Source of the DNA: an uncultured Gammaproteobacteria bacterium
GTDB lineage: Bacteria; Pseudomonadota; Gammaproteobacteria; CAZDOC01
DNA: 64,000 nt
Direction of reading: 5' to 3'
NCBI GenBank assembly: GCA_964506945.1
Contig: CAZDOC010000002.1
Coordinates: 42,834 to 106,833, forward strand
Positions 4,098 to 21,222 of this stretch are shown here, piece after piece (within the stretch, counting starts at the first letter, position 1; the number at the start of each line of letters is the position of its first letter). Below the pieces are notes generated by a model. It was not told the DNA's origin, did no database searches, and saw nothing but the letters and a program-made list of their open reading frames with translations. Both the position numbers and the translations under genes were made by a program.

Positions 4098-5870
4098 GTG
4101 CTCCGGTCCCCGGCCTGTCGTCATGCTGGTATTGCAGCGGGAAGAATCAACGTGGGAAAAAAGATCAGAGGCGCGGAAATCTTCATCAAATGCCTTGAAG
4201 ATGAAGGCGTGGAATTCGTCTTCGGATATCCGGGTGGCGCGGTACTGCATATCTATGACGCCTTGTACAACCAGGACAAGGTCAAGCATATCCTGGTGCG
4301 GCACGAGCAGGGCGCCACCCATGCCGCGGACGGTTACGCCCGCGCCACCGGACGGCCCGGCGTGGTCCTGGTGACCTCGGGTCCGGGCGCCACCAATACC
4401 GTGACCGGCATCGCCACCGCCTATATGGATTCCATCCCCATGGTGGTCTTTACCGGCCAGGTACCCACTCAGCTGATCGGCAACGATGCCTTCCAGGAAG
4501 TCGACAATCTCGGCATCACCCGTCCCTGTGTCAAGCACAACTTCATGGTCAAGGACGTGCGCGACATGGCCGAAACCATCAAGAAGGCATTCTATGTCGC
4601 CAGCACCGGGAGGCCAGGTCCGGTGGTGGTCGATCTGCCCAAGGACGTGACCGCCGATCTCAGCGAATACGCCTATCCCGAGAGCGTGGAAATGCGATCC
4701 TACAAGCCGGTGGTCAAGGGTCACCCCGGGCAGATCAAGAAGGCGGTCAATCTGCTCCTGAGGGCGCGCAAGCCGATGATCTACAGTGGCGGCGGCGCGG
4801 TGCTGGACAACGCGGATGCCGAACTGACCGAACTGACGCGCATGCTGGGCTTCCCCATCACCAATACCCTGATGGGCCTGGGCGCCTATCCGGGCACCGA
4901 CCGGCAATTCGTCGGCATGCTGGGCATGCATGGCACCTATGAGGCCAATATGGCCATGCACCAGTGCGATGTGCTGCTGGCCATCGGCGCGCGTTTCGAT
5001 GACCGCGTGACCGGCAACCTGGAAAAATTCTGTCCGCACGCAAGCATCATCCATATCGATATCGACCCGGCCTCGATCGCCAAGAACGTGCCGGTGGATA
5101 TTCCCATCGTCGGCAGCGTAAGGAACGTCCTGGGGGACATGATCAAGCTCCTGCAGGCCACCGACAAGCGCCCGGACGAGCAGGCGCTGGCGGAATGGTG
5201 GGAGCGGATCGACGCCTGGCGCAAGGTCGACTGTCTCGCCTACGAGCGCGGCACCGAGGTCATCAAGCCCCAGTTCGTGGTCGAGACCCTGTATGAGCTG
5301 ACCGGGGGCGATGCCTTTATCACCTCGGATGTCGGCCAGCATCAGATGTGGGCGGCGCAGTATTACAAGTTCAACAAGCCCAGACGCTGGATCAACTCCG
5401 GCGGGCTCGGCACCATGGGCTTTGGCGTGCCCGCGGCGATGGGGGTGCAACTGGCATACCCGCAAGAGACCGTTTGCTGCATCAGTGGCGAGGCCTCTCT
5501 GGTGATGTGCATACAGGAGTTGTCCACCTGCCTGCAGTACGGCCTGCCGATCAAGATCGTCAGTCTGAACAATCGCTACATGGGTATGGTCAGGCAGTGG
5601 CAGGAATTCTTCTATGACCGGCGTTACTCACATTCCTACATGGATGCCCTGCCGGACTTTTCGGCCCTGGCGGAGAGCTTTGGCCACGTCGGCATGCGCA
5701 TCGAGAAGAGCGCGGACGTCGAGGCCGCGCTGAAGGAGGCCCTGGCCATGAAGGAACGTCTGGTATTGATGGACTTCGTCACCGATCAGACCGAGAACGT
5801 CTACCCGATGATCGCCGCCGGCAAGGGACATAACGAAATCCTGCTACCAACCGACAGGGAGCTGGCCTGA
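4098..5870 (+). CDS. ilvI: Acetolactate synthase III large (catalytic) subunit. An alternative GTG start at 4152 fits homolog N-termini better.
   Basis: Recalled IlvI/IlvB motifs FGYPGGAVLHIYDAL, VTSGPGATNTVTGIATAYMDSIP and GRPGPVVVDLPKDV. The small-subunit gene follows 2 nt downstream. Confidence 0.9.
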   Translation: MLRSPACRHAGIAAGRINVGKKIRGAEIFIKCLEDEGVEFVFGYPGGAVLHIYDALYNQDKVKHILVRHEQGATHAADGYARATGRPGVVLVTSGPGATNTVTGIATAYMDSIPMVVFTGQVPTQLIGNDAFQEVDNLGITRPCVKHNFMVKDVRDMAETIKKAFYVASTGRPGPVVVDLPKDVTADLSEYAYPESVEMRSYKPVVKGHPGQIKKAVNLLLRARKPMIYSGGGAVLDNADAELTELTRMLGFPITNTLMGLGAYPGTDRQFVGMLGMHGTYEANMAMHQCDVLLAIGARFDDRVTGNLEKFCPHASIIHIDIDPASIAKNVPVDIPIVGSVRNVLGDMIKLLQATDKRPDEQALAEWWERIDAWRKVDCLAYERGTEVIKPQFVVETLYELTGGDAFITSDVGQHQMWAAQYYKFNKPRRWINSGGLGTMGFGVPAAMGVQLAYPQETVCCISGEASLVMCIQELSTCLQYGLPIKIVSLNNRYMGMVRQWQEFFYDRRYSHSYMDALPDFSALAESFGHVGMRIEKSADVEAALKEALAMKERLVLMDFVTDQTENVYPMIAAGKGHNEILLPTDRELA

Positions 5871-5871
5871 G

Positions 5872-6366
5872 ATGCGACACATCATCTCCATCCTGATGGA
5901 AAACGAATCCGGCGCCCTGTCGCGCGTGGCCGGGCTGTTCTCCGCACGTGGCTACAATATCGAATCGCTGACCGTGGCGCCGACCGAGGACCCGACGGTG
6001 TCGCGCATGACCCTGGTGACCCGGGGTTCCGACGCGATCATCGAGCAGATCACCAAGCAGCTGAACAAGCTGATCGATGTGATCAAGCTGGTGGACCTGA
6101 ACGAGAGCCGCCATATCGAGCGCGAACTGATGCTGATCAAGCTGCGCGCCCGGGGCGCGGATGTGCGCGAAGAGGTCAAGCGCCTGGTGGATATCTTCCG
6201 CGGCCGTGTTCTCGATGTCGCCGACACCACCTTCACCGTGGAGCTGACGGGTGACGGGGGCAAGCTCGATGCCTTTATCGATGCCGTGGATGAACGCCAG
6301 ATCATCGAGGTGGTGCGTACCGGCATATCCGGGATCGCCCGTGGCGAGAAGCACCTGGCCGTCTGA
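5872..6366 (+). CDS. ilvH: Acetolactate synthase small (regulatory) subunit.
   Basis: ACT-domain N-terminus MRHIISILMENESGALSRVAGLFSARGYNIESLTV, typical of IlvH/IlvN. It directly follows ilvI. Confidence 0.9.
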   Translation: MRHIISILMENESGALSRVAGLFSARGYNIESLTVAPTEDPTVSRMTLVTRGSDAIIEQITKQLNKLIDVIKLVDLNESRHIERELMLIKLRARGADVREEVKRLVDIFRGRVLDVADTTFTVELTGDGGKLDAFIDAVDERQIIEVVRTGISGIARGEKHLAV

Positions 6367-10120: not shown

Positions 10121-10807
10121 ATGAGGCGGCGTCAGGAATATCTCCGCGAGATGGGGGTCCAGCTCTGGACCCGGCGCGAGGCCGGAGCACGGGTCGTCGA
10201 GGCCGCGCCCCCGGGGGGGAATGCGGAGCCCCCCATCGCCGCGATGGACTGGCCGGAACTGCGTGCCTGCGTGGCTGCTTGCCGGCGCTGCGAGCTGGGC
10301 GCGCAGCGGGGGCAGGCGGTCTTCGGCACCGGTGATCCGCGCGCCGACTGGTTGATCATCGGCGAGGCTCCCGGGGCCGAGGAGGATCGCCAGGGCGAGC
10401 CCTTCGTCGGTCGCGCCGGGCAGTTGCTGAACGCCATGCTCGCGGCCATCGGTCTGGCCCGTGAGCAGGTCTATATCGCCAATATCCTCAAGTGCCGTCC
10501 GCCGGGAAACCGCGATCCCCGACCCGCCGAGGTGGCCAGCTGCGGTCCTTTCCTGGCCCGCCAGGTGGCGTTGATCCAGCCCCGCATCATCCTCGCCCTG
10601 GGGCGGATCGCCGCCCACAACCTGCTGGTCACGGATACGCCGATAGGCAAGCTGCGCGGCCGGTGCTATCGCTATGGTGACGACGGCATTCCCCTGGTGG
10701 TGACCTACCATCCTGCCTATCTGCTGCGGTCGCCGCGCGAGAAGCGCAAGGCCTGGGCGGATCTGCAACTGGCCATGGACTGTCTGCGCGGGGCGGACCG
10801 CGCATGA
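10121..10807 (+). CDS. Uracil-DNA glycosylase, family 4.
   Basis: Family-4 UDG motifs [24 protein letters not shown] and a 4Fe-4S cysteine pattern ([18 protein letters not shown]). Confidence 0.8.
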
Positions 10808-11271
10808 GCGCGGTACTACAGGAGGGCGTGGGGATCCGGCCGATGCAGGAGACCGATATCCATGTGGTCCACGGCATCGAGACCGAGGTGCATGCCTATC
10901 CATGGACCCGGGGGATCTTCCAGGATTGCCTGCGGGTGGGGTATTGCTGCTGGGTCGAGGAGTTGCGCGACGCCGTAGCCAGTTACGGCATCATGAGTAT
11001 CGCCGCCGGGGAATCGCATATCCTCAACATCGGCGTCGACCATGACCGGCAGCGCCAGGGCCTGGGCAGTCGCATGCTGCGGCATATGCTGGAACTGGCC
11101 TCGCGGCATCAGGCCGAGACGACCTTTCTGGAGGTGCGGCCCTCGAATGTGGCCGCGCTGGCGCTCTATCATCGCTTTGGTTTCACCGAGGTCGGCCTGC
11201 GGCGGGCTTATTATCCGGGTGACAAGGACCGCGAGGATGCGGTGATCCTGGCCCTGCAGCTCAAATGCTAG
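10804..11271 (+). CDS. rimI: Ribosomal-protein-alanine N-acetyltransferase (GNAT).
   Basis: GNAT fold motifs HILNIGVDHDRQRQGLGSRML. The start overlaps the UDG stop as ATGA, and UDG-rimI adjacency is common. Confidence 0.7.
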   Translation: MSAVLQEGVGIRPMQETDIHVVHGIETEVHAYPWTRGIFQDCLRVGYCCWVEELRDAVASYGIMSIAAGESHILNIGVDHDRQRQGLGSRMLRHMLELASRHQAETTFLEVRPSNVAALALYHRFGFTEVGLRRAYYPGDKDREDAVILALQLKC

Positions 11272-11294: not shown

Positions 11295-12032
11295 CTAGGG
11301 CCGGGGTTCGCGCCGCTCCAGCAGCGGGCCGATCAGGCGCAAGAGCAGGTCCACGCTTGCCAGGCCCCGTTCCGGGGGACCGGACCTCAGGCTTCGTTCC
11401 AGCTTCATCGCCGCCCGGGAGAGCGTGGAGACGCCACAGATTGCGGCGTTTCCGGCCAGGCCATGGGCGATGCGCGACAGGGTGTCCCGATCGCCGCGAT
11501 CCCGGGCCTGGCACAGACGCCGATACTCGCCGGGGAGGCTGTCGACCAGCAGGGCATGGAGTTCCGCGCGCAGTTGCGGCGCCATGTCCATGCTCGCGGG
11601 TTCCCGCGCCCGGTCCGCGGCCAACGGCAGATAGCGGTTCAGGAGTGCCTCCAGCCGGGCCAGGTCCAGCGGCTTGTACAGGTACTCGCTAAAACCCTCC
11701 CGTCGCAGGCGGATGCGGGTCTCCGGGCGGGTGTCGGCGGTCAGGCAGAACATCGGCGGAATGGCCTTCCCGGCCAGGAGGTCGAGGAGATGCCGGCGGG
11801 TGGCGTAACCGTCCATCCCCGGCATGTGCAGGTCCATCAGGATCAGTCCGAAGTCCTGGCGCCGGCACAGCGCCAGGGCCTCCGGACCGCTGGCGGCCGC
11901 CACCAGCGGTCGTTCCAGCCTGTCCATCATGTCCTGGAGCAGGTGACGGCTGATCGGATCATCCTCGATCAGCAGCAGTTGGGGTGTGCTCGCGGTGCAG
12001 GTGTCGATCATCATGCATCCCTTCATGTTCAC
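11295..12032 (-). CDS. Orphan response regulator with an N-terminal receiver domain and a C-terminal HPt-like domain.
   Basis: LLLIEDDPISRHLL...LILMDLHMPGMDGYA (REC domain), and C-terminal IAHGLAGNAAICGVSTLS (HPt-like His motif). Confidence 0.6.
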   Translation of the reverse strand: MNMKGCMMIDTCTASTPQLLLIEDDPISRHLLQDMMDRLERPLVAAASGPEALALCRRQDFGLILMDLHMPGMDGYATRRHLLDLLAGKAIPPMFCLTADTRPETRIRLRREGFSEYLYKPLDLARLEALLNRYLPLAADRAREPASMDMAPQLRAELHALLVDSLPGEYRRLCQARDRGDRDTLSRIAHGLAGNAAICGVSTLSRAAMKLERSLRSGPPERGLASVDLLLRLIGPLLERREPRP

Positions 12033-12072: not shown

Positions 12073-12963
12073 ATGGACTATCCCGGTATCGAAGCCTTCG
12101 TCGGTAATACGCCCCTGGTGCGACTGCAGCGCCTGCCCGGCGAGACCAGCAATATTATCCTGGCAAAACTGGAGGGCAACAACCCCGCCGGCTCGGTCAA
12201 GGACCGTCCCGCCCTGAGCATGATCCAGCACGCCGAGGCGCGTGGGGAGATCCGCCCGGGAGACACCTTGATCGAGGCCACCAGTGGCAATACCGGTATC
12301 GCCCTGGCCATGGCCGCGGCCATGAAGGGCTATCGCATGCGTCTGATCATGCCGGAAAACATGAGCGTCGAACGGCGGGCGGTGATGCGGGCCTTTGGCG
12401 CCGAGATCGTTCTGACCTCGGCCGGGGGCAGTATGGAGGAGGCCATCGATACCGCCCGGGCGATGCAGCAGCGTGGCGAGGGAAGGGTGCTGGACCAGTT
12501 CTCCAACCCCGACAATCCACTGTCCCACTACCAGGGTACCGGTCCCGAGATCTGGCGCGACACACAGGGCGGGATCACCCATTTCGTCAGCTCCATGGGA
12601 ACCACCGGCACCATCATGGGGACCTCCCGCTATCTCAAGGAACAGAACCCGGAGATAGAGATCGTCGGTGTGCAACCCACCGGCGAGGCCCATATCCCCG
12701 GTATCCGTCGATGGCCCGAGGCCTACCTGCCGGCGATATACGACCCCGGTCGCGTGGATCGGGTCATCGATGTCGGTCAGCAGGCGGCCGAGGATACCAC
12801 CCGCGCGCTGGCCGCGCGGGAAGGGATCTTCGCCGGCATCTCTTCCGGCGGGGCGGTGGCCGCGGCGCTGGAGTTGTCCGCCACACTGGAAGACGCGGTG
12901 ATCGTGGTGATCATCTGTGACCGCGGTGATCGCTATCTGTCCACCGAGGTCTTTCCGGCCTGA
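12073..12963 (+). CDS. cysM: Cysteine synthase B (O-acetylserine sulfhydrylase B).
   Basis: Near-colinear with E. coli CysM: GNTPLVRLQRL, KLEGNNPAGSVKDRPALSMI, ATSGNTGIALAMAAAMKGY and IICDRGDRYLST. Confidence 0.9.
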   Translation: MDYPGIEAFVGNTPLVRLQRLPGETSNIILAKLEGNNPAGSVKDRPALSMIQHAEARGEIRPGDTLIEATSGNTGIALAMAAAMKGYRMRLIMPENMSVERRAVMRAFGAEIVLTSAGGSMEEAIDTARAMQQRGEGRVLDQFSNPDNPLSHYQGTGPEIWRDTQGGITHFVSSMGTTGTIMGTSRYLKEQNPEIEIVGVQPTGEAHIPGIRRWPEAYLPAIYDPGRVDRVIDVGQQAAEDTTRALAAREGIFAGISSGGAVAAALELSATLEDAVIVVIICDRGDRYLSTEVFPA

Positions 12964-12992: not shown

Positions 12993-15104
12993 GTGCGTCG
13001 TCGCGCCCACCACGGATCCTGGCCGTTTCCGGTCCTGTTGCTGTCCCTGTGCCTGGCCCAGGCCCTGCAGGCGCGTGGCCTGCTCGATCTCAGCCTTGCG
13101 CGTATCGCGGCGCGGGCCTGGTCGGCGGATGCCGTCAGCCTGTCACTGGAGCCGCTGGGGGTGGACGATTACCGCCTGCACCTGCGCCTCGGGCGTCTGC
13201 ATCTGCCAGCCATCCCGGTGCTCCAACGGATCGACCTGCGCTGTCCCCATGTCCGCGTGACGGGCCAACGGCTGAGCTGTACCCGGGCCCGGCTGGGTCT
13301 TCACGGCGCCGATGGCCGGCAACTGAGCGCGGTCGTGGCGCTGGAATATCATCGCGATACCCGGGTACTGCGCTTCCACCTCTCCGGGCTTGACCCTTTC
13401 CCGGGCGATTTGCGTCTGGAGGGTCACCTGCGTGGCGCGGACTGGTTCCTGCGGCTCACGGGCACGGACCTCGATCTGGCGGCGTTGCCGGGTCTGCTGT
13501 CGCCCCTGACCGCCGCGCTCGGCGGGATCGGCGAGGTCGCCGGCAAGGCGACGTTGCAGGCCACGATCAGCGGTCATGGCGCCATCCCCACACGCGTACA
13601 GCTAGGCGCGGAGGTCCGGGATATGGCCTTCAACGGCGTGAATGTGGCCGAGGCCGTGAACGCGGGACTGGAACTGGACTGCCGCCGGGCGGCGCGACAA
13701 CGGTGCCGGGTCGCGCTCGAACTGCGGCATGGCGGTGTCTATATCGAGCCGGGTCTGCAACTGGGCGCTTACCGTCCGGGTTTCACCCTGCAGGCCGGAG
13801 CGCGACCCCTGCGCCTGGATGCGCAACTCGATGCACCGCTGGCAACCACCCTGGGACGGGGCCCTGTCTACCTGAAAGCGCTCACGCTGGAGCATCCCGG
13901 GGTGATGGATCTGCGCCTGTCCGGGCTCTGGGATCAGGACCACGGGGCTCGGCCGGAGCACCTGGAGCTACATCTGCAAAGCCCTGATCTGGCGCGCCTG
14001 TATGCCGTCTATCTGCAACCGCTGTGGTTGAATACCGCGCTCAGCACACTGGAAACCAGCGGCGCCCTGAACCTGGATCTGGAGCTTGGACGCGATGCTG
14101 CGCAGCGGGTCAGGTTGAAACTGGATGATGTCTATGCCGATGACGAGGGCGCTCGCTTCAGGGTCTCGGGCCTGAGTGGTGTGTTGGCATTCACTACCGG
14201 CAATGAGCCTCTGTCATCCCGCTTGCACTGGGATGGCGCCGGGGTCTACCGGCTCGATTTCGGGGCCACGGAATTGCCCATGGTATCTCGCCAGGGGCGT
14301 CTCGAACTCACCGCTCCGGTCAGTATCCCGATCCTGGATGGCGAGTTGCGGGTCGCGCGACTGCGCCTCGGGCGCCTGGCGCAGGGTGATGCCGACATCC
14401 TCCTGGATGGTGAATTGACCCCGGTCTCCCTGCAGGAGCTGACCCAGGCCCTGGGCTGGCCACTGATGAGCGGGACCCTGTCCGGCAGGATCCCCGGCCT
14501 GCACTATGGCCAGGGGGATCTTCAGGTCCATGGTGAATTGGAGGTCGAGGCCTTCGATGGCCGTATCGGGATCCGCAACCTGCGTCTGCAGAACCTGTTC
14601 GGCCCGGTACCGGTCCTGGATGCCGATATCTCGATCCAGGGCCTGGACCTGGCGCGGCTGACCCGGACCTTTTCCTTTGGCGGCATCAGCGGGCGCCTGG
14701 ACGGGGCCATCGAGGGCCTGCGCCTGGAGGCCTGGCAACCGTTGCGTTTCGACGCCTGGCTGGCCACGCCGGATGATGATGACAGCCGCCACCGCATCAG
14801 CCAGCGGGCGGTGGACAACCTCACCCGCATCGGTGGCGGCGCCACCACCAGCGCCATCTCACGCGCCTTCCTGGGGGTCTTCAAGGCCTTTGACTATGAC
14901 CGTCTGGGGCTGCGTTGCCGATTGCGCAACGGCATCTGTCAGATGGATGGTGTGGCCCCGGCAAAGTCGGGTTACTATATCGTCGAACATGGCCTGCTGC
15001 CCCCCTGGCTGGACATCATCGGTTATAACCGTAGCGTGAACTGGGAGGTGCTGGTCGAGCGTCTGCGGGCCATCGTTCAGGGCCAGGCGCCGGTCATGCG
15101 CTAG
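12993..15104 (+). CDS. YdbH-like AsmA-family protein (DctA-YdbH domain), a large periplasm-spanning envelope protein.
   Basis: N-terminal signal or anchor, long repetitive beta-rich body, C-terminal conserved block GYYIVEHGLLPPWLDIIGYNRSVNW. It is followed by a YnbE/YdbL-like gene, as in the E. coli ydbH-ynbE-ydbL operon. Confidence 0.6.
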   Translation: MRRRAHHGSWPFPVLLLSLCLAQALQARGLLDLSLARIAARAWSADAVSLSLEPLGVDDYRLHLRLGRLHLPAIPVLQRIDLRCPHVRVTGQRLSCTRARLGLHGADGRQLSAVVALEYHRDTRVLRFHLSGLDPFPGDLRLEGHLRGADWFLRLTGTDLDLAALPGLLSPLTAALGGIGEVAGKATLQATISGHGAIPTRVQLGAEVRDMAFNGVNVAEAVNAGLELDCRRAARQRCRVALELRHGGVYIEPGLQLGAYRPGFTLQAGARPLRLDAQLDAPLATTLGRGPVYLKALTLEHPGVMDLRLSGLWDQDHGARPEHLELHLQSPDLARLYAVYLQPLWLNTALSTLETSGALNLDLELGRDAAQRVRLKLDDVYADDEGARFRVSGLSGVLAFTTGNEPLSSRLHWDGAGVYRLDFGATELPMVSRQGRLELTAPVSIPILDGELRVARLRLGRLAQGDADILLDGELTPVSLQELTQALGWPLMSGTLSGRIPGLHYGQGDLQVHGELEVEAFDGRIGIRNLRLQNLFGPVPVLDADISIQGLDLARLTRTFSFGGISGRLDGAIEGLRLEAWQPLRFDAWLATPDDDDSRHRISQRAVDNLTRIGGGATTSAISRAFLGVFKAFDYDRLGLRCRLRNGICQMDGVAPAKSGYYIVEHGLLPPWLDIIGYNRSVNWEVLVERLRAIVQGQAPVMR

Positions 15105-15330
15105 ACCGGCATGGAAACATGAACCATTCAGGGTCTCTGCGGGACGAGGCGATATCACCGGAATCGATTGCCGCCGGTGAAGGATTCTGGAACACGGTGC
15201 GAATCGTATTTGCACCGAGGCGTGCGTTGATCGATCCAGGACGGATTCATTCAGCGTTTCCTCTCTCCTGAGTTGCCGCCCTGCCCTGGGTGCCAAGACT
15301 ATCAGCAGCAAGGTCTTCAAGGAGTCACAA

Positions 15331-15969
15331 ATGAAATCCACGCATCAGTTCTCACTGGCCAGCATGTGTCTGCTGCTGGTCGCCTGCGTTACGGTCAATG
15401 TCTATTTCCCCGCCGCGGCGGCGGAAAAGGCCGCGGACCGTTTCATCCGCGATGTCTATGGCGAACAGCCCGGCAAGATAACACGGCCGGCGCCGGAGCA
15501 GACCCCGCAAAGCGGACAGCCGGAGGTCCAGACCCCGCCGCAGTCGTCGCTGCAACCGTCCTTGCCGCTACTCGGATGGCTGCTCGACAGCCTGGTTCCG
15601 GAGGCCTCGGCCGCAGCGCTGGACATCAGTATCTCCTCCCCCGGCATCAACCGCCTGAAGGCCGCGATGCGATCGCGAAATCGCGCCCTGGCGCCGTTTT
15701 ACAACAGCGGCGCCGTGGGCATGACCGCCAACGGCCTGCTGACCCTGCGCAATCCCAGGGCCGTCGGACTGAAGGACCGTAACCGCGTCAAGCAATTGAT
15801 CGCCGATGAAAACCGCGATCGCAACGCCCTCTATGCCGAGGTCGCCCGCGCCAACGGTCATCCGGAGTGGGAGCCGGAGATACGAGCGACCTTCGCCAGC
15901 CGCTGGGTCGGCAATGCCCCGCGGGGCTGGTGGTATCAGGACGGGCGCGGCAACTGGAAGCAGAAATAG
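15331..15969 (+). CDS. Fused YnbE-like lipoprotein and YdbL-like (DUF1318) periplasmic protein.
   Basis: Lipobox LLVAC followed by CVTVNVYFPAAAA (YnbE-like). The C-terminal half, SGAVGMTANGLLTL...ENRDRNALYAEVARANGHPEW...GWWYQDGRGNWKQK, resembles DUF1318/YdbL. Confidence 0.55.
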   Translation: MKSTHQFSLASMCLLLVACVTVNVYFPAAAAEKAADRFIRDVYGEQPGKITRPAPEQTPQSGQPEVQTPPQSSLQPSLPLLGWLLDSLVPEASAAALDISISSPGINRLKAAMRSRNRALAPFYNSGAVGMTANGLLTLRNPRAVGLKDRNRVKQLIADENRDRNALYAEVARANGHPEWEPEIRATFASRWVGNAPRGWWYQDGRGNWKQK

Positions 15970-15994
15970 GCCTGCGGGCAGGGGAGGGTTCGCG

Positions 15995-16687
15995 ATGAAT
16001 TGCCTGATCTTCGCCATAGCAACGGCGCCGGATCTCGATGCCGGGCGGCATCTGCATCAGCTGCAGGACATCGATGACGAGGATGTCGCCACGGCCTTGT
16101 CGACGCTGCGTTATCAGCAGACCGACGGTGGTACCGATCGTCTCCCGGCCCACCTGCAACGGGTGGTGACGATCTCCCTGCTGGAATCCCGTGACGGGGA
16201 ACTGGACCTGTGCCGCCTGGGCGCCGATGAGAGGGATGAGCAGGATCTGCTGGAGAGGTTCTTTGACCGGGTCCGTACCCATGAGCGGGAGCTGGTGAGC
16301 TGGGATGGGGCCGCCTTCGCGCTGCCGGTGCTGAACTACAGGGCGCTGGTGCATGCGCTCTGTGTGCCCTGGCAGGAGGATGACGGGATCCTGGGCTGGC
16401 CGCATACGGATCTGCGCGCCGCCCTCTCCGCGCCGGGCGGCGGGGACGTGGTGCGGCTGGACGAGATCGCGCGCCTGCTGGGTTTCCCCGGCGGTATCGA
16501 TGCCGACGCCGGGGCGGATACGCAGCGGGACGTGCTCAATGCCTATCTGATCTACCTGCGCCTGGAGCGCCTGCGCGGACACTTGTCCGCGGCCGACTGC
16601 GAGCAGGAATATTCACGGCTGCGGGAATGGCTGTGGCAGTCGGGGCAGGAGTCCCTGCAGGCCTTCCTGCAGGCCTGGGGCACCTGA
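15995..16687 (+). CDS. PolB-exonuclease-like (COG3298, RNase H-like) protein with degenerate catalytic motifs.
   Basis: Start at the ATG giving MNCLIFAIATAPDLDAGR.... Colinear with the COG3298 predicted 3'-5' exonuclease family (HLQRVVTISLL, LVSWDGAAFALPVLNYRAL, IARLLGFPGG, DVLNAYLIYLRL). The Exo I, II and III acidic residues are substituted (FAIAT, FALP, and no Y-x3-D). Confidence 0.6.
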   Translation: MNCLIFAIATAPDLDAGRHLHQLQDIDDEDVATALSTLRYQQTDGGTDRLPAHLQRVVTISLLESRDGELDLCRLGADERDEQDLLERFFDRVRTHERELVSWDGAAFALPVLNYRALVHALCVPWQEDDGILGWPHTDLRAALSAPGGGDVVRLDEIARLLGFPGGIDADAGADTQRDVLNAYLIYLRLERLRGHLSAADCEQEYSRLREWLWQSGQESLQAFLQAWGT

Positions 16688-16695
16688 GTCCGGTG

Positions 16696-18318
16696 CTATT
16701 CACCCGCGTGGGCGAAGGCCCGCGGGTGGTCACGGATCTGGCTACTGCTGTACAGGGCCAGGATGCGTGAGCTGCGATAGGGCTGCTGGTAGAGGGGGGC
16801 GACGGCACGCGGCAGGTGGCCGTATTTGAAATAGGTGACGATATAGCCGCCGGCATGGCGCTCCGCCCAGGCCGTCACGCCCCCCCGCGGTATCTTTTCC
16901 AGTGGCGCCTGCAGCCGGCCCAGCAGCATGAACTGTTCCCGGTGTGTGCCACGGTGCCCCAATGGATGGCCGCTGGCCTGTAACGCCGCCAGGCGCCGGC
17001 TGATGACGCTGAGGTCATGGTAGGGGGCGGCGCTGTGGAATGCGCCGACCAGGGCGGTGGCGATGGCCAGGGTGGAGGCCAGGGCCAGGGCGCGGTCGTG
17101 GCCCGCCGGCCGACGGCTGCGCAGCGCCACGAACAAACCGATGCCCATCACCAGCAGGCCCCACAGGGGCGACAGTTCGCGCAACCAGCCATGTCCGGGG
17201 ACGTGGCGCAGATAGAGTGGCGTGGCACTCAGGAGCAGCCCGACCAGGGCGATGAGCAGGCCCGGAAGCCAGCAGGCCGTGTTGGCCGTGGCGGGGTCCC
17301 GCTGGCTGAGCAAGCGGCTGATCAGGAGTGCCGCCGGAGGCAGCAGCGGCACCAGATAGTGCACCTTCTTGCCCCCGATCAGGGACAGCAGCAGGAGCAC
17401 GGGCAGCAACCAGGCCAGGCAGAAGCGCAGGCCGCGATCGTCCGGCAGCGAGCCTTGCAGGCCCCGCCACAGGCCGGGGAGGAACAGCCACGGGAACAAC
17501 AGCGGGATCAGCAGCGGCAGATACCACCACCAGGGCCGCGCATGCATGTAGCCCTTGCCGAGGCGGTCGGCGGTCTGGTGCCAGCCTATCATGCGCGCGT
17601 ATTCCGCTCCGCCTTGCAGCGCCGCCGGCACCGCCCAGGCCAGCGCCAGCAGGCTGCCGGCGATCGTGGCCAGCAGCACACCCAGATACCAGCGTCCCCA
17701 GCGCCTGTCCCCCGGCACAACCCACATCGGCGCCAGCAGGATCACCGGCAGGCTGTCCAGCAGCATCACCGGCCCCTTGGTCAGCAGCCCCAGGGCCAGC
17801 CCCAGGGCCAGATAGACCCAGCCCCGGCCTTCTCGCCGCAGGCTCAGCAGGGCGCCATAGATGCTCAATAGCACGAAATACACCAGTACCAGATCGAATA
17901 GCAGCATGCCCGAGTAAAACAGCCACAATGGCAGGCTCAGAAGCACCAGAGGGACCCGTTGCGCGGGACCTTCGCGAGCCGGCCACAGCAGCAGGGCCAG
18001 GCGCCGCACCAGCAACAGGGAGGCCAGGGCGAACAGGGTCGGTATCAGCCGTGGCCACCACTCACTGACACCGAACAGCCACCAGCCCGCCTGCATCAGC
18101 CAGAACAGCAACGGGGGCTTGTGGCTGTAAGGCATGGCGTTGACATAGGGGACGAGGAAATCGTGTCGCAGCCACATCTCCCAGGCCACCGCCAGGTAGC
18201 GGGTTTCATCGAAGGGGAAGGCGTGCCGCAGGAGCAGTTGCAGCAGACCGTAGCTCAGCAGCAGGATAGCGGCCAGCGGCAGGGTATCGCCTGGCAGCAA
18301 GGGGGAGGGACGGGCCAT
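16696..18318 (-). CDS. Glycosyltransferase family 39/83, ArnT-like undecaprenyl-phosphate-sugar transferase (polytopic membrane protein).
   Basis: The 540-aa product has about a dozen hydrophobic helices, the ArnT/PMT signature YSHKPPLLFWLMQAGWWLFG, and periplasmic loops. Confidence 0.75.
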   Translation of the reverse strand: MARPSPLLPGDTLPLAAILLLSYGLLQLLLRHAFPFDETRYLAVAWEMWLRHDFLVPYVNAMPYSHKPPLLFWLMQAGWWLFGVSEWWPRLIPTLFALASLLLVRRLALLLWPAREGPAQRVPLVLLSLPLWLFYSGMLLFDLVLVYFVLLSIYGALLSLRREGRGWVYLALGLALGLLTKGPVMLLDSLPVILLAPMWVVPGDRRWGRWYLGVLLATIAGSLLALAWAVPAALQGGAEYARMIGWHQTADRLGKGYMHARPWWWYLPLLIPLLFPWLFLPGLWRGLQGSLPDDRGLRFCLAWLLPVLLLLSLIGGKKVHYLVPLLPPAALLISRLLSQRDPATANTACWLPGLLIALVGLLLSATPLYLRHVPGHGWLRELSPLWGLLVMGIGLFVALRSRRPAGHDRALALASTLAIATALVGAFHSAAPYHDLSVISRRLAALQASGHPLGHRGTHREQFMLLGRLQAPLEKIPRGGVTAWAERHAGGYIVTYFKYGHLPRAVAPLYQQPYRSSRILALYSSSQIRDHPRAFAHAGE

Positions 18319-18943: not shown

Positions 18944-19725
18944 GAGGGATGCCTCTCTTCCAGTTTGACCAGGCGTCCCAGTCTGATCAGACGGACGCCA
19001 TGGCGTTGTTCGATATCGGGGAGTTCCGCCGCCAGCAGGGCCAGCGTCTGTGGGTGTGGGTGGGCGATGGCCAGGGCATAGCCCTGTTCACGGGCCTTGT
19101 CGAGCAGGCGATGGAATTGCATGGCGATGGCCGTGGGGCTGAGGTCGTCATCGAGGAATACATCGCGGGAGATACTGGGGATCCCCTGCTCCAGGGCGAT
19201 CTCCTCGGCAACGGTGCCGCTGGTGGTGCGGCTGTCGATGAAGAACAGGCCGCGATGACGGTGGATCGCGGTCATCAGCCACTGCATCCTGTCGGCCTGC
19301 GTGGTCAGCAGGCTGCCCATGTGGTTGTTGACACCAATCGCCCGGGGCACCGACTCCAGCGCCATGCGCAGGCGGGTGGCGATCTCCACCTGATCCATGT
19401 CGCTGCGCAGGGCCCCCGGACCCAGCAGGTGATTGTGATGCTCGGCCTCCATGGGCAGGTGCAGCAGGATCTCCTTGCCCAGGGCGTGGGCGGTCTCGGC
19501 CAGGCGCGCGCCATTGGGTGTGAAGGGCAGGAAGGAGTAACTCAGGGGTCCAGGCAGTGCCAGGGCGCGCCGGCCCTGTTCCAGGCGATAGCCCATGTCA
19601 TCGATGATGATGCTGATGACCGGGGTGGCGTCGTTGGCCGTGGCCGGCATCGCCGGCAGGCACAGCAGCGCAAGCACGGCGAGGCCGCTGATCCAAGATG
19701 CGCCGATACCCCGGGACAGGTTCAT
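18898..19725 (-). CDS. yibQ: Divergent polysaccharide deacetylase, YibQ family.
   Basis: Signal peptide followed by PVISIIIDDMGYRLEQGRRALALPGPLSYSFLPFTPNG. Conserved position downstream of envC. The 3' end overlaps the DJ-1 start by 46 nt. Confidence 0.8.
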   Translation of the reverse strand: MNLSRGIGASWISGLAVLALLCLPAMPATANDATPVISIIIDDMGYRLEQGRRALALPGPLSYSFLPFTPNGARLAETAHALGKEILLHLPMEAEHHNHLLGPGALRSDMDQVEIATRLRMALESVPRAIGVNNHMGSLLTTQADRMQWLMTAIHRHRGLFFIDSRTTSGTVAEEIALEQGIPSISRDVFLDDDLSPTAIAMQFHRLLDKAREQGYALAIAHPHPQTLALLAAELPDIEQRHGVRLIRLGRLVKLEERHPSWQLSLSPSPTAAKN

Positions 19726-19731
19726 GCCGAT

Positions 19732-21042
19732 CTATTTTTTTGCCTGCTGCAGCAGGGCCAGACCCTTGAGCAGGTTGAAGGCCTCGTAGAGTTCAAAGTC
19801 ACGCGAGACCAGTTGCTTGATGTTTTTTGCGTTGTTCTTGCCGCCCTTGTTCTTCAACGCCTCGATCAGCTTGCCGTTGCGCAGGTGGTGGCTGAGGTCG
19901 GCCTCCTTCACGCTGCTGGCGGGACTCTTCTCCCTGGGTTTGATGCTGAGGGGTTCCAGGACGATGTCCGGGGTGATCCCCTGGGCCTGTATGGAACGCC
20001 CCGAAGGGGTGTAATAGCGCGCCGTGGTGAGTTTCACCGCGGTCTCGTTGGTCATCGGCAGGATGGTCTGCACCGAGCCCTTGCCGAAGCTCTGCTGACC
20101 CATGATGATCGCGCGCCTGTGGTCCTGCAGCGCCCCGGCGACGATCTCCGAGGCCGAGGCCGAACCGCCGTTGATCAGCACCACCATCGGCGCGTCATGG
20201 ATCAGGTCCATGGGCTTGGCGTTGAAGCGGATATCGGAGTCCTTGATGCGGCCCTGGGTATAGACGAGCAGGCCCTTGGAGATGAAGGCGTCGGAGACCT
20301 CCACGGCGGCGTCGAGAACCCCGCCGGGATTGTTGCGCAGGTCCAGGATGAGGCCCTTGATCCGATCCTGATTGTCCTTGTTCAGGCGTGTGATGGCCTT
20401 GCGCAGGTCCTCGCCGGTATGGGACTGGAACTGCGAAATGCGCACGTAGGCGAAGCCGGGCGCGAGGGTCTCGCTGCGTACGCTCCTGACCTTGACGATG
20501 GCCCGTGTGATTTCGATCTTCAGGGGCTTTTCCACGCCTTCGCGGACCACGGTCAGGGTGATCTTGCTGCCGGGTTTGCCGCGCATGATCTTGACCGCAT
20601 CGCTCAGCGACATGCCCTTGACCGGGGTGTCGTCGAGGCGAATGATCAGGTCACCGGCCTGGATCCCGGCCTTGGCGGCCGGGGTGTCGTCTATCGGCGA
20701 GATGACCTTGATGAAACCATCCTCCTGTCCCACCTCGATGCCCAGGCCACCGAACTCACCCGAGGTGCCTTCCTGCAGATCCCGGAACGCGGCCTTGTCC
20801 AGGTAGGCCGAATGGGGATCCAGGCCGGTGAGCATGCCACGGATGGCGTTCTCCAGCAGGGTCTTGTCATCCACCGGCTCGACATAATCGTTCTTGATCT
20901 TGGCGAAGACCTCGGTAAAGGTGCGCAACTCGCGCAATGGCAGTGGATCCGTATCCTTGCCTGCTGGCGCCGCGGCCGTCACATTCAGGCCGAGGAACAG
21001 CCCGGCTGCCAGCACAAGGATTTGCGTCGGTACTTTTTTCAT
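19732..21042 (-). CDS. ctpA: Carboxy-terminal processing protease (S41).
   Basis: Signal peptide, PDZ domain (FGGLGIEVGQEDGFIKVISPIDDTPAAKAGIQAGDLII) and S41 catalytic region (VVLINGGSASASEIVAGALQDHRRAIIMGQQSFGKGSVQ). Confidence 0.9.
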   Translation of the reverse strand: MKKVPTQILVLAAGLFLGLNVTAAAPAGKDTDPLPLRELRTFTEVFAKIKNDYVEPVDDKTLLENAIRGMLTGLDPHSAYLDKAAFRDLQEGTSGEFGGLGIEVGQEDGFIKVISPIDDTPAAKAGIQAGDLIIRLDDTPVKGMSLSDAVKIMRGKPGSKITLTVVREGVEKPLKIEITRAIVKVRSVRSETLAPGFAYVRISQFQSHTGEDLRKAITRLNKDNQDRIKGLILDLRNNPGGVLDAAVEVSDAFISKGLLVYTQGRIKDSDIRFNAKPMDLIHDAPMVVLINGGSASASEIVAGALQDHRRAIIMGQQSFGKGSVQTILPMTNETAVKLTTARYYTPSGRSIQAQGITPDIVLEPLSIKPREKSPASSVKEADLSHHLRNGKLIEALKNKGGKNNAKNIKQLVSRDFELYEAFNLLKGLALLQQAKK

Positions 21043-21222
21043 AAGCGATTTGTCTTCTAACTCAGCCTGTTACGGTGCGAACCCGTGAGGATACGCGCGC
21101 CGGACCCGGGCCACAAGTGCCCAGGGGTCCCGAGCCGGATGCGCGGCCACCCCGTGGCTCCATCGCCCGGCCCCGGTCTGGCCGGCTGCGGCCGCTACGC
21201 GGTCATCCGCCGAGTCCTGCGC

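Follow-up and report, generated by a model that had tools for sequence, protein, structure and literature searches.

A free-standing PolB-like exonuclease homologue of an uncultured gammaproteobacterium has lost four of its five catalytic residues and is probably a maintained pseudo-nuclease

A degenerate homologue of the PolB-like exonucleases lies in the 64,000-nucleotide stretch of contig CAZDOC010000002.1, from an uncultured gammaproteobacterium, that we analysed and refer to below as the window. Its gene (exo hereafter, a name also used for the corresponding genes of other genomes) occupies 15995-16687 on the forward strand, between ydbL and a convergent glycosyltransferase gene, and encodes 230 amino acids plus stop. 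A preliminary description of the locus had judged the reading frame intact and the product colinear with the PolB-exonuclease-like family COG3298. Both points held: the frame is uninterrupted over 230 codons ending at 16687, and the protein matches PF10108 (DNA_pol_B_exo2) with E=1.7e-34 and 119.8 bits (cutoff 24) over profile positions 3-213 of 213. The window exo is a member of the PF10108/COG3298 family of stand-alone PolB-like 3'-5' exonucleases. A weaker match was to PF13482 (RNase_H_2), no NCBIfam model matched the protein, and its identity to 67 homologues was 36-58%. The open reading frame (ORF) listed for exo begins upstream at 15806, and we set the start at the ATG at 15995 because the N-termini of homologues (MNCL...) and a Shine-Dalgarno-like sequence, GGGGAGGG (15981-15988, forward strand, read from the sequence 6 nt ahead of the ATG), agree on it. 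Purine-rich equivalents of this sequence were found upstream of the related genes at L001, L002 and L011 described below. The GC contents at codon positions 1, 2 and 3 (0.75, 0.44 and 0.81) resemble those of the neighbouring genes.

The catalytic positions were mapped by alignments with 22 and 65 homologues and by an alignment of the family profile to archaeal PolB and Pol epsilon structures. The family consensus reads FDIET at Exo I, WNGxGFDLPVL at Exo II and YCETD at Exo III, and in the window protein four of the five DEDDy residues are lost. Exo I has become FAIAT (residues 6-10, 16010-16024, forward strand, on beta-strand 1 of the predicted model), with D7A (codon GCC) and E9A (GCA), the two substitutions put forward at the outset and now confirmed by multiple alignments. 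Exo II persists as WDGAAFALP (residues 103-111, 16301-16327, forward strand), carrying N104D and D109A relative to WNGxGFDLP; the replacement of FDLPVL by FALPVL, likewise claimed earlier, is upheld by alignments that include Pol epsilon and Pfu. Several degenerate representatives of the family likewise have Asp in place of the Exo II Asn. In a single-sequence search the Exo II region aligned to NGDFFDWP of Pol epsilon, and with the family profile Exo II aligned to NGDSFDLP, and YCETD of Exo III to YSMED, of the Pfu and Deep Vent polymerases. At Exo III, YCETD has become DTQRD, the beginning of a remnant DTQRDVLN (residues 175-182; 16514-16540 on the forward strand, including the deletion site that precedes it). 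Here the Tyr is replaced by Asp175 just after a 15-residue in-frame deletion, and Asp179 is kept. The earlier statement that Exo III has no Y-x3-D was therefore right about the Tyr and wrong about the Asp. Acidic residues that might be present but offset were also looked for; Ala stands at Exo I and Exo II alike in the multiple alignment, in the alignment of the profile to PDB sequences and in the predicted fold.

The second deletion, of 13 residues, lies between G131 and I132 according to the alignments (16385-16390, forward strand). Both deletions are in frame and were seen against all homologues. In a model of the active homologue P0007, built for comparison (predicted local distance difference test, pLDDT, 91.2), the 13 residues take in helix 140-147 and part of a loop modelled with low confidence, and the 15 residues take in helix 183-191 and the first part of the Exo III helix. 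Also changed in the window protein, though at least 92% conserved in active members, are F49, D142, K167, G172, E177 and T183; of these, F49, D142, K167 and T183 are family-invariant positions close to the active site. The motif H137-T-D139 is retained on beta-strand 5 (16403-16411, forward strand), and the DLMD that follows it is degraded to DLRA. This H-x-D motif, which in PF10108 aligns to HFDL of archaeal PolB, is common throughout the family, with the His in 168 of 184 sequences and the Asp likewise in 168 of 184, most degenerate ones included.

The AlphaFold2 model of the window protein (66-sequence input) reached a pLDDT of 89.1 and a predicted template modelling score of 0.88, with low confidence at residues 128-131 and 170-173. 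In the PDB, Foldseek matched it best to the exonuclease domains of Pol epsilon and of archaeal family-B polymerases (E=1.5e-5, query template modelling score about 0.5), and the order of its secondary-structure elements is that of the active-homologue model minus the two deleted helices. A PDB search with the single sequence gave weak Pol epsilon matches (E about 0.1), and the family profile was needed. The predicted fold is that of the RNase H-like superfamily and of PolB exonuclease domains. DEDD and family-B enzymes are, as standard, made exo-minus by replacing the Exo I Asp and Glu with Ala, and because this is an established exo-minus genotype we infer that the protein is inactive, that is, devoid of metal-dependent exonuclease chemistry.

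The lesion is not peculiar to one assembly or strain. An identical protein, with the same neighbours, is encoded on the independent Logan contig L012, and three diverged metagenomic relatives (P0002 of L001, P0003 of L002, and positions 655-1425 of L011, the last of them added by a metagenome scan) carry Ala, encoded by GCY, at the Exo I Asp position, so that the change is present in four of four clade members. A sequencing error is ruled out by these two findings together. Identity among the window protein and the three relatives is 46-60%, at about 0.8-1.1 synonymous substitutions per site (dS), and each relative's degenerate gene lies 25-39 bp 3' of a highly similar ydbL. The relatives also lack most of the other catalytic residues, and what stands at these positions differs within the clade: A or R at the Exo I Glu, A or E at the Exo II Asp, D or H at the Exo III Tyr and D, A or E at the Exo III Asp, every change being a single step away from the active codon. 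At the Exo II Asn position N104D is, within the clade, confined to the window, the residue being H in L001, N in L002 and G in L011. The simplest reading of this pattern is that one inactivating change occurred in a common ancestor and that erosion of a site freed from selection then proceeded independently in each descendant. When GTDB species genomes were scanned with the clade alignment, only four loci came back, all of them active genes of the FDIET type, so that neither the source organism nor close kin is among the representatives that such patterns can reach.

We then considered whether a gene in this condition is still maintained. Rate inference used only a close active pair and a comparison with the neighbouring gene; dN/dS (omega, the ratio of nonsynonymous to synonymous substitution) is uninformative for distant pairs because dS saturates near 1 for active-active pairs too. 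In the active pair L014-L015 (dS 0.40), exo had an omega of 0.13 and a dN of 0.054, against 0.073 for ydbL, a ratio of 0.74. Within the degenerate clade dN was 0.28-0.48 for exo and 0.01-0.12 for ydbL, and the exo/ydbL dN ratio for the window and L011 was 4.2, a 5- to 6-fold acceleration over the active pair. The clade's own omega was 0.30-0.45, with bootstrap upper bounds of at most 0.62, which exclude 1. When scaled to the dS of ydbL omega spans 0.3-1.1, and selection on the gene has therefore clearly been relaxed.

That relaxation is what would be expected if exo were a decaying relic, an unprocessed pseudogene whose ORF is open because stop codons are rare at 65% GC. Nonsynonymous change is about 5-fold faster, with omega reaching about 0.7-1.1 on the ydbL scale, no two of the four clade members have the same downstream flank, rlmD (which usually adjoins the gene on the right, see below) has been lost from its position, and long spurious ORFs are common in the window, as exemplified by one on the reverse strand at 15788-16582. 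Further observations weigh against maintenance. The dS values on which the clade's own omega depends are near saturation (0.8-1.1) in a genome with strong bias in GC content at third codon positions (GC3); of the four copies that of the window is the most eroded, with its two extra deletions and low-confidence model regions; L011 also lacks the otherwise near-invariant His137 and Gly166; and invariant residues beside the catalytic motifs have been lost as well, giving no positive sign of retained function.

Against decay stands, in the first place, the survival of the frame: the ORF is intact in four lineages at dS of at least 0.6, and neutral simulation put the chance of its staying open at 0.015-0.145 per lineage and at no more than 4e-4 for the four. 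The indels of the clade are all multiples of three (3/3). Substitutions moreover spare the structural core of the family. In a comparison of the three full-length clade members with 106 active sequences (104 family members plus L014 and L015), clade-invariant positions tracked conservation in the active sequences (Spearman 0.31, p=6e-7); the retained core comprises F6, T10, P12, D13, E82, W103, G105, F108, P111, R116, H137, D139, G163, P165 and N182, and the lost residues cluster at the catalytic motifs and adjacent positions. Codon-position GC of the coding type, conserved Shine-Dalgarno-like sequences and a confident predicted fold point the same way. Because the conservation pattern, the survival of the ORF and the in-frame indels oppose pure drift, we favour a maintained protein over a relic, which we consider unlikely: exo is probably a folded pseudo-nuclease kept by selection. 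The suggestion in the preliminary description of a non-catalytic derivative is thus supported, with the Exo I and Exo II carboxylates gone from a gene that appears to be kept under constraint.

The position of the gene bears on a second explanation, in which exo is a redundant paralogue, a duplicated, degenerating or regulatory spare of an active PF10108 gene lying elsewhere, for example beside a relocated rlmD. In related genomes PF10108 genes are tightly linked to rlmD, which encodes a 23S rRNA m5U methyltransferase, with gaps of 2-57 bp in L003, L005, L016, L017 and L018. Active genes of the FDIET type occupy the arrangements ydbL-exo-rlmD in L014 and L015 (where YdbL is 66-67% identical to that of the window), cysM-exo-rlmD in Ectothiorhodospira mobilis (L003) and recO-pdxJ-exo-rlmD in L005. 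In the window the order is cysM, a 703-codon ORF, ydbL and exo, so that the left side is conserved and the right side is not. A cysM-like gene of the PALP family (12073-12963, forward strand; PF00291, E=3e-74) represents the left neighbour that the exonuclease gene had ancestrally, as related genomes show, and its product is 73% identical to that of the E. mobilis gene directly abutting the active exonuclease. The ydbL gene (DUF1318; 15331-15969, forward strand; PF07027, E=1.2e-21) lies 25 bp upstream of exo and is a conserved left neighbour, which the active outgroups share with all four degenerate clade members. On these grounds we take exo to be the positional orthologue of the active DEDDy exonuclease gene.

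A redundant paralogue would accord with the absence of rlmD from the window, and it should be borne in mind that our tblastn search, which found neither rlmD nor a second PF10108 copy, covered the 64 kb of the window, on a contig at least 160 kb long, a limit that also counts against regarding exo as the sole copy. But lineages in which this place holds an active gene show exactly the same synteny on the left, no second copy occurs within the window, and in L016, L017 and L018 it is the degenerate copy itself that directly precedes rlmD. We therefore hold a redundant paralogue to be quite improbable. That exo might still be an enzyme, hydrolysing through a rewired site of polar residues (D13, D104, H137, D139 and D179), is hardly credible: although H137 and D139 are conserved in 168 of 184 family sequences, most degenerate ones included, and the recurrent N104D change adds a carboxylate near the former Exo II site, Ala has replaced both of the Exo I carboxylates with which every DEDD exonuclease holds its two metal ions, N104D is not common to the clade, D179 and H137 are lost in sister sequences, and accelerated lineage-specific decay at every catalytic position argues that no compensating site is under selection.

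For a maintained pseudo-nuclease, the history could have run as follows. The ancestor of a small gammaproteobacterial clade would have exchanged the Exo I Asp for Ala (GAY to GCY); once catalysis was lost, the Exo I Glu, the Exo II Asn and Asp, the Exo III Tyr, Glu and Asp, Lys167 and Phe49 would have been free to vary, and would have decayed differently in each descendant. The window copy may then have lost the two helical segments flanking the former active-site region, while rlmD, normally next downstream, became separated from it. The protein itself would have been retained for a non-catalytic role, as a binding or structural partner. The loss of N104, K167, F49 and T183, family-invariant but non-catalytic residues that neighbour the catalytic motifs in sequence, argues weakly against a retained canonical 3'-end binding in the old active site. 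A role in anti-phage defence was considered and rejected, PADLOC having matched no defence model to the three proteins scanned, namely those of exo, the 703-codon ORF and ydbL. The 25-bp gap and the Shine-Dalgarno-like sequence suggest co-transcription with ydbL, and we infer that exo is expressed, probably in this way. A promoter scan gave 0 promoters, with nothing promoter-like between ydbL and exo, and was uninformative; terminator-like sites occurred at chance level.

Other features of the neighbourhood can be described briefly. The preliminary description had placed exo 25 bp after YdbH-YnbE/YdbL envelope genes. The ydbL part stands (window YdbL to E. coli YdbL, BLASTP E=2e-5). The ynbE part does not: the 226-bp gap at 15105-15330, the place of ynbE in E. 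coli, holds no suitable ORF, and tblastn with E. coli YnbE was blank there, as was Rfam. A fusion of YnbE into the long N-terminus of YdbL was rejected since no similarity was found. Nor is the YdbH label supported by sequence searches. The 703-codon ORF upstream of ydbL (12993-15104, forward strand) is placed as ydbH should be, has syntenic equivalents in L012, L013 and L017, matched nothing in Pfam, NCBIfam or PDB sequence searches, and gave an insignificant BLASTP score with E. coli YdbH (E=0.06); its product could be either a YdbH/AsmA-like protein that has diverged greatly or a protein of another kind. Between the equivalents of this ORF and of ydbL, the sister lineage L013 has 576 bp free of genes (5425-6000) and L017 has no gap. 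The YdbL of the window has 212 amino acids, as against 108 in E. coli, and consists of an N-terminal lipoprotein-like signal (LLLVAC), a linker rich in Pro and Gln, which is the part that varies between clade members, and DUF1318 at residues 115-212.

On the other side, a convergent gene for an ArnT/PMT_2-like glycosyltransferase (16696-18318, reverse strand; PF13231, E=5.8e-7; NF009784, E=2e-33 but below cutoff) ends 8 bp from the exo stop and occupies the place of rlmD in relatives. The downstream gene is of the isocitrate/isopropylmalate dehydrogenase family in L001 (from 1091 onward), a BD-FAE esterase gene in L002 (from 934 onward) and, in L011 (from 1425 onward), another ORF unlike those of the other clade members. 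Since it differs in each member, the 3' side of exo is a recurrent rearrangement breakpoint. Horizontal acquisition was rejected, GC content being unremarkable across the region, and repeats around exo were limited to short chance matches. Further upstream, a gene for a uracil-DNA glycosylase of the family-4/5 type (PF03167) overlaps a GNAT acetyltransferase gene by 4 bp (10121-11271), and a stand-alone response-regulator-Hpt gene (11295-12032) lies on the opposite strand just upstream of cysM; both arrangements are also present in L013. Long antisense or out-of-frame ORFs of 100-700 codons are frequent in the window, whose GC content is 65%; examples are one of 264 codons antisense to exo (15788-16582, reverse strand) and one of 703 codons at 18949-21060. 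As GC3 supports the annotated frames, we consider them compositional artefacts. Neither Rfam nor ARAGORN found a structured RNA or tRNA in the window.

To see how far the loss of catalytic residues extends, we carried out a family profile search over 1.84 billion cluster representatives, which yielded 2,605 members (50% identity clusters) at E<=0.001. In a census of 165 near-full-length sequences 104 had all five DEDDy residues and 61 had three or fewer; this fraction is not an estimate of prevalence, the sample being biased because the query profile was itself degenerate and because clustering at 50% over-counts fast-evolving lineages. The degenerate representatives tested against PF10108 all matched (47/47, best E 6.7e-65), and several degenerate proteins belong to clusters seen on many contigs, one of them from a metagenome-assembled genome of the Chromatiales. 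A profile built from the 47 degenerate representatives did not enlarge the degenerate set, since it returned consensus-like active proteins (117 of 119 with all motifs). The PF10108-rlmD pair often follows an rnc-era-recO-pdxJ-acpS block, and one database protein (P0045, 393 amino acids) unites ACPS and PF10108 domains in one chain. This conserved neighbourhood of PF10108 and rlmD seems not to have been discussed so far.

Three lineages beyond the window clade have a degenerate gene in the same kind of slot: P0035 at L016 (rnc-era-recO-pdxJ-acpS-Hpt-cysM-exo-rlmD), P0110 at L017 (cysM, a 670-codon ORF, ydbL, exo and rlmD) and the P0078 cluster at L018 (cysM-exo-rlmD). Identity among their proteins, and between these and the window clade, is only 30-41%, against 40-48% to active proteins, and they carry differing catalytic replacements. 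These data fit independent catalytic losses in positional orthologues of three or more lineages beyond the window clade, although an early Asp-to-Ala change common to some of the degenerate lineages could also account for part of the pattern. A wider proposal would be that PF10108 has a conserved gammaproteobacterial role independent of exonuclease chemistry, the DEDDy residues having been lost at least four times from genes that stay intact and in place and whose products stay folded. We think this rather unlikely as matters stand. If it were true, there would be a selectable non-catalytic function, for instance in binding a partner, or the end of an RNA or DNA, in connection with ribosome biogenesis or repair; the window gene would exemplify a widespread and undescribed class of bacterial pseudo-nucleases, and a considerable share of PF10108 would be misannotated under the blanket label of 3'-5' exonuclease.

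The annotation matters because PF10108, a family widespread in bacteria, is universally labelled "3'-5' exonuclease" and there is almost no functional characterisation in the literature searched. If dead members are kept by selection in the same slot, automatic annotation is wrong for those genes, the function of the family is probably separable from hydrolysis, and pairs of dead and active orthologues offer a natural experiment for finding what PF10108 does. A pseudoenzyme in an uncharacterised family is by itself a modest finding and resolves no long-standing question. We regard exo as a naturally dead variant, and a new one, of a known but uncharacterised exonuclease family.

The closest known systems are the active members of PF10108/COG3298, which exo resembles in its profile match, length class, predicted fold and slot after cysM or ydbL. 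They share T10-x-P12-D13, E82, W103, G105, P111, R116, H137-x-D139, G163-x-P165-G166 and N182. Majorek et al. (PMC3985635) placed the family beside the PolB exonuclease domains in the RNase H-like superfamily. The Campylobacter jejuni member Cj1132c was pulled down with DNA, and spontaneous mutation became rarer when it was deleted (PMC4611032). In the literature searched this is the only experimental work on the family, and exonuclease activity is biochemically unproven even for canonical members. Unlike the active members, the window exo retains only one of the five DEDDy residues, lacks the invariant Lys167, has deletions of 13 and 15 residues, evolves about 5 times faster and no longer has rlmD next to it.

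A second comparison is with the exo-minus family-B polymerases, which have been engineered by changing the Exo I Asp and Glu to Ala, as in Pfu D141A/E143A and Pol epsilon D275A/E277A. The natural FAIAT of exo is the same FDIET-to-FAIAT double substitution. The engineered enzymes, however, have the site otherwise intact and bind the primer terminus, whereas exo is also without the Exo II carboxylate, the Exo III Tyr and neighbouring invariant residues, and it has no polymerase domain. Inactivated exonuclease domains also exist in nature: Tahirov, Makarova, Rogozin, Pavlov and Koonin reportedly described them in 2009 in eukaryotic Pol alpha, Pol zeta and the C-terminal half of Pol epsilon. There the PolB-type exonuclease fold is kept without catalytic carboxylates for structural reasons, within large polymerases; exo, in contrast, is a free-standing bacterial protein of 230 amino acids whose partner is not known. 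Finally, pseudonucleases have arisen repeatedly within an active nuclease family in the case of fungal Ssd1 and RNase II/Dis3L2-like proteins (PMC8097288, PMC8934651), and Drosophila Exuperantia is cited as a DEDD-like pseudonuclease in PMC5125753. The Ssd1/RNase II proteins belong to another fold family and domain of life and have demonstrated RNA binding. What they and Exuperantia appear to have in common with exo is a repeated and independent loss of catalytic residues in which the fold and purifying selection were kept.

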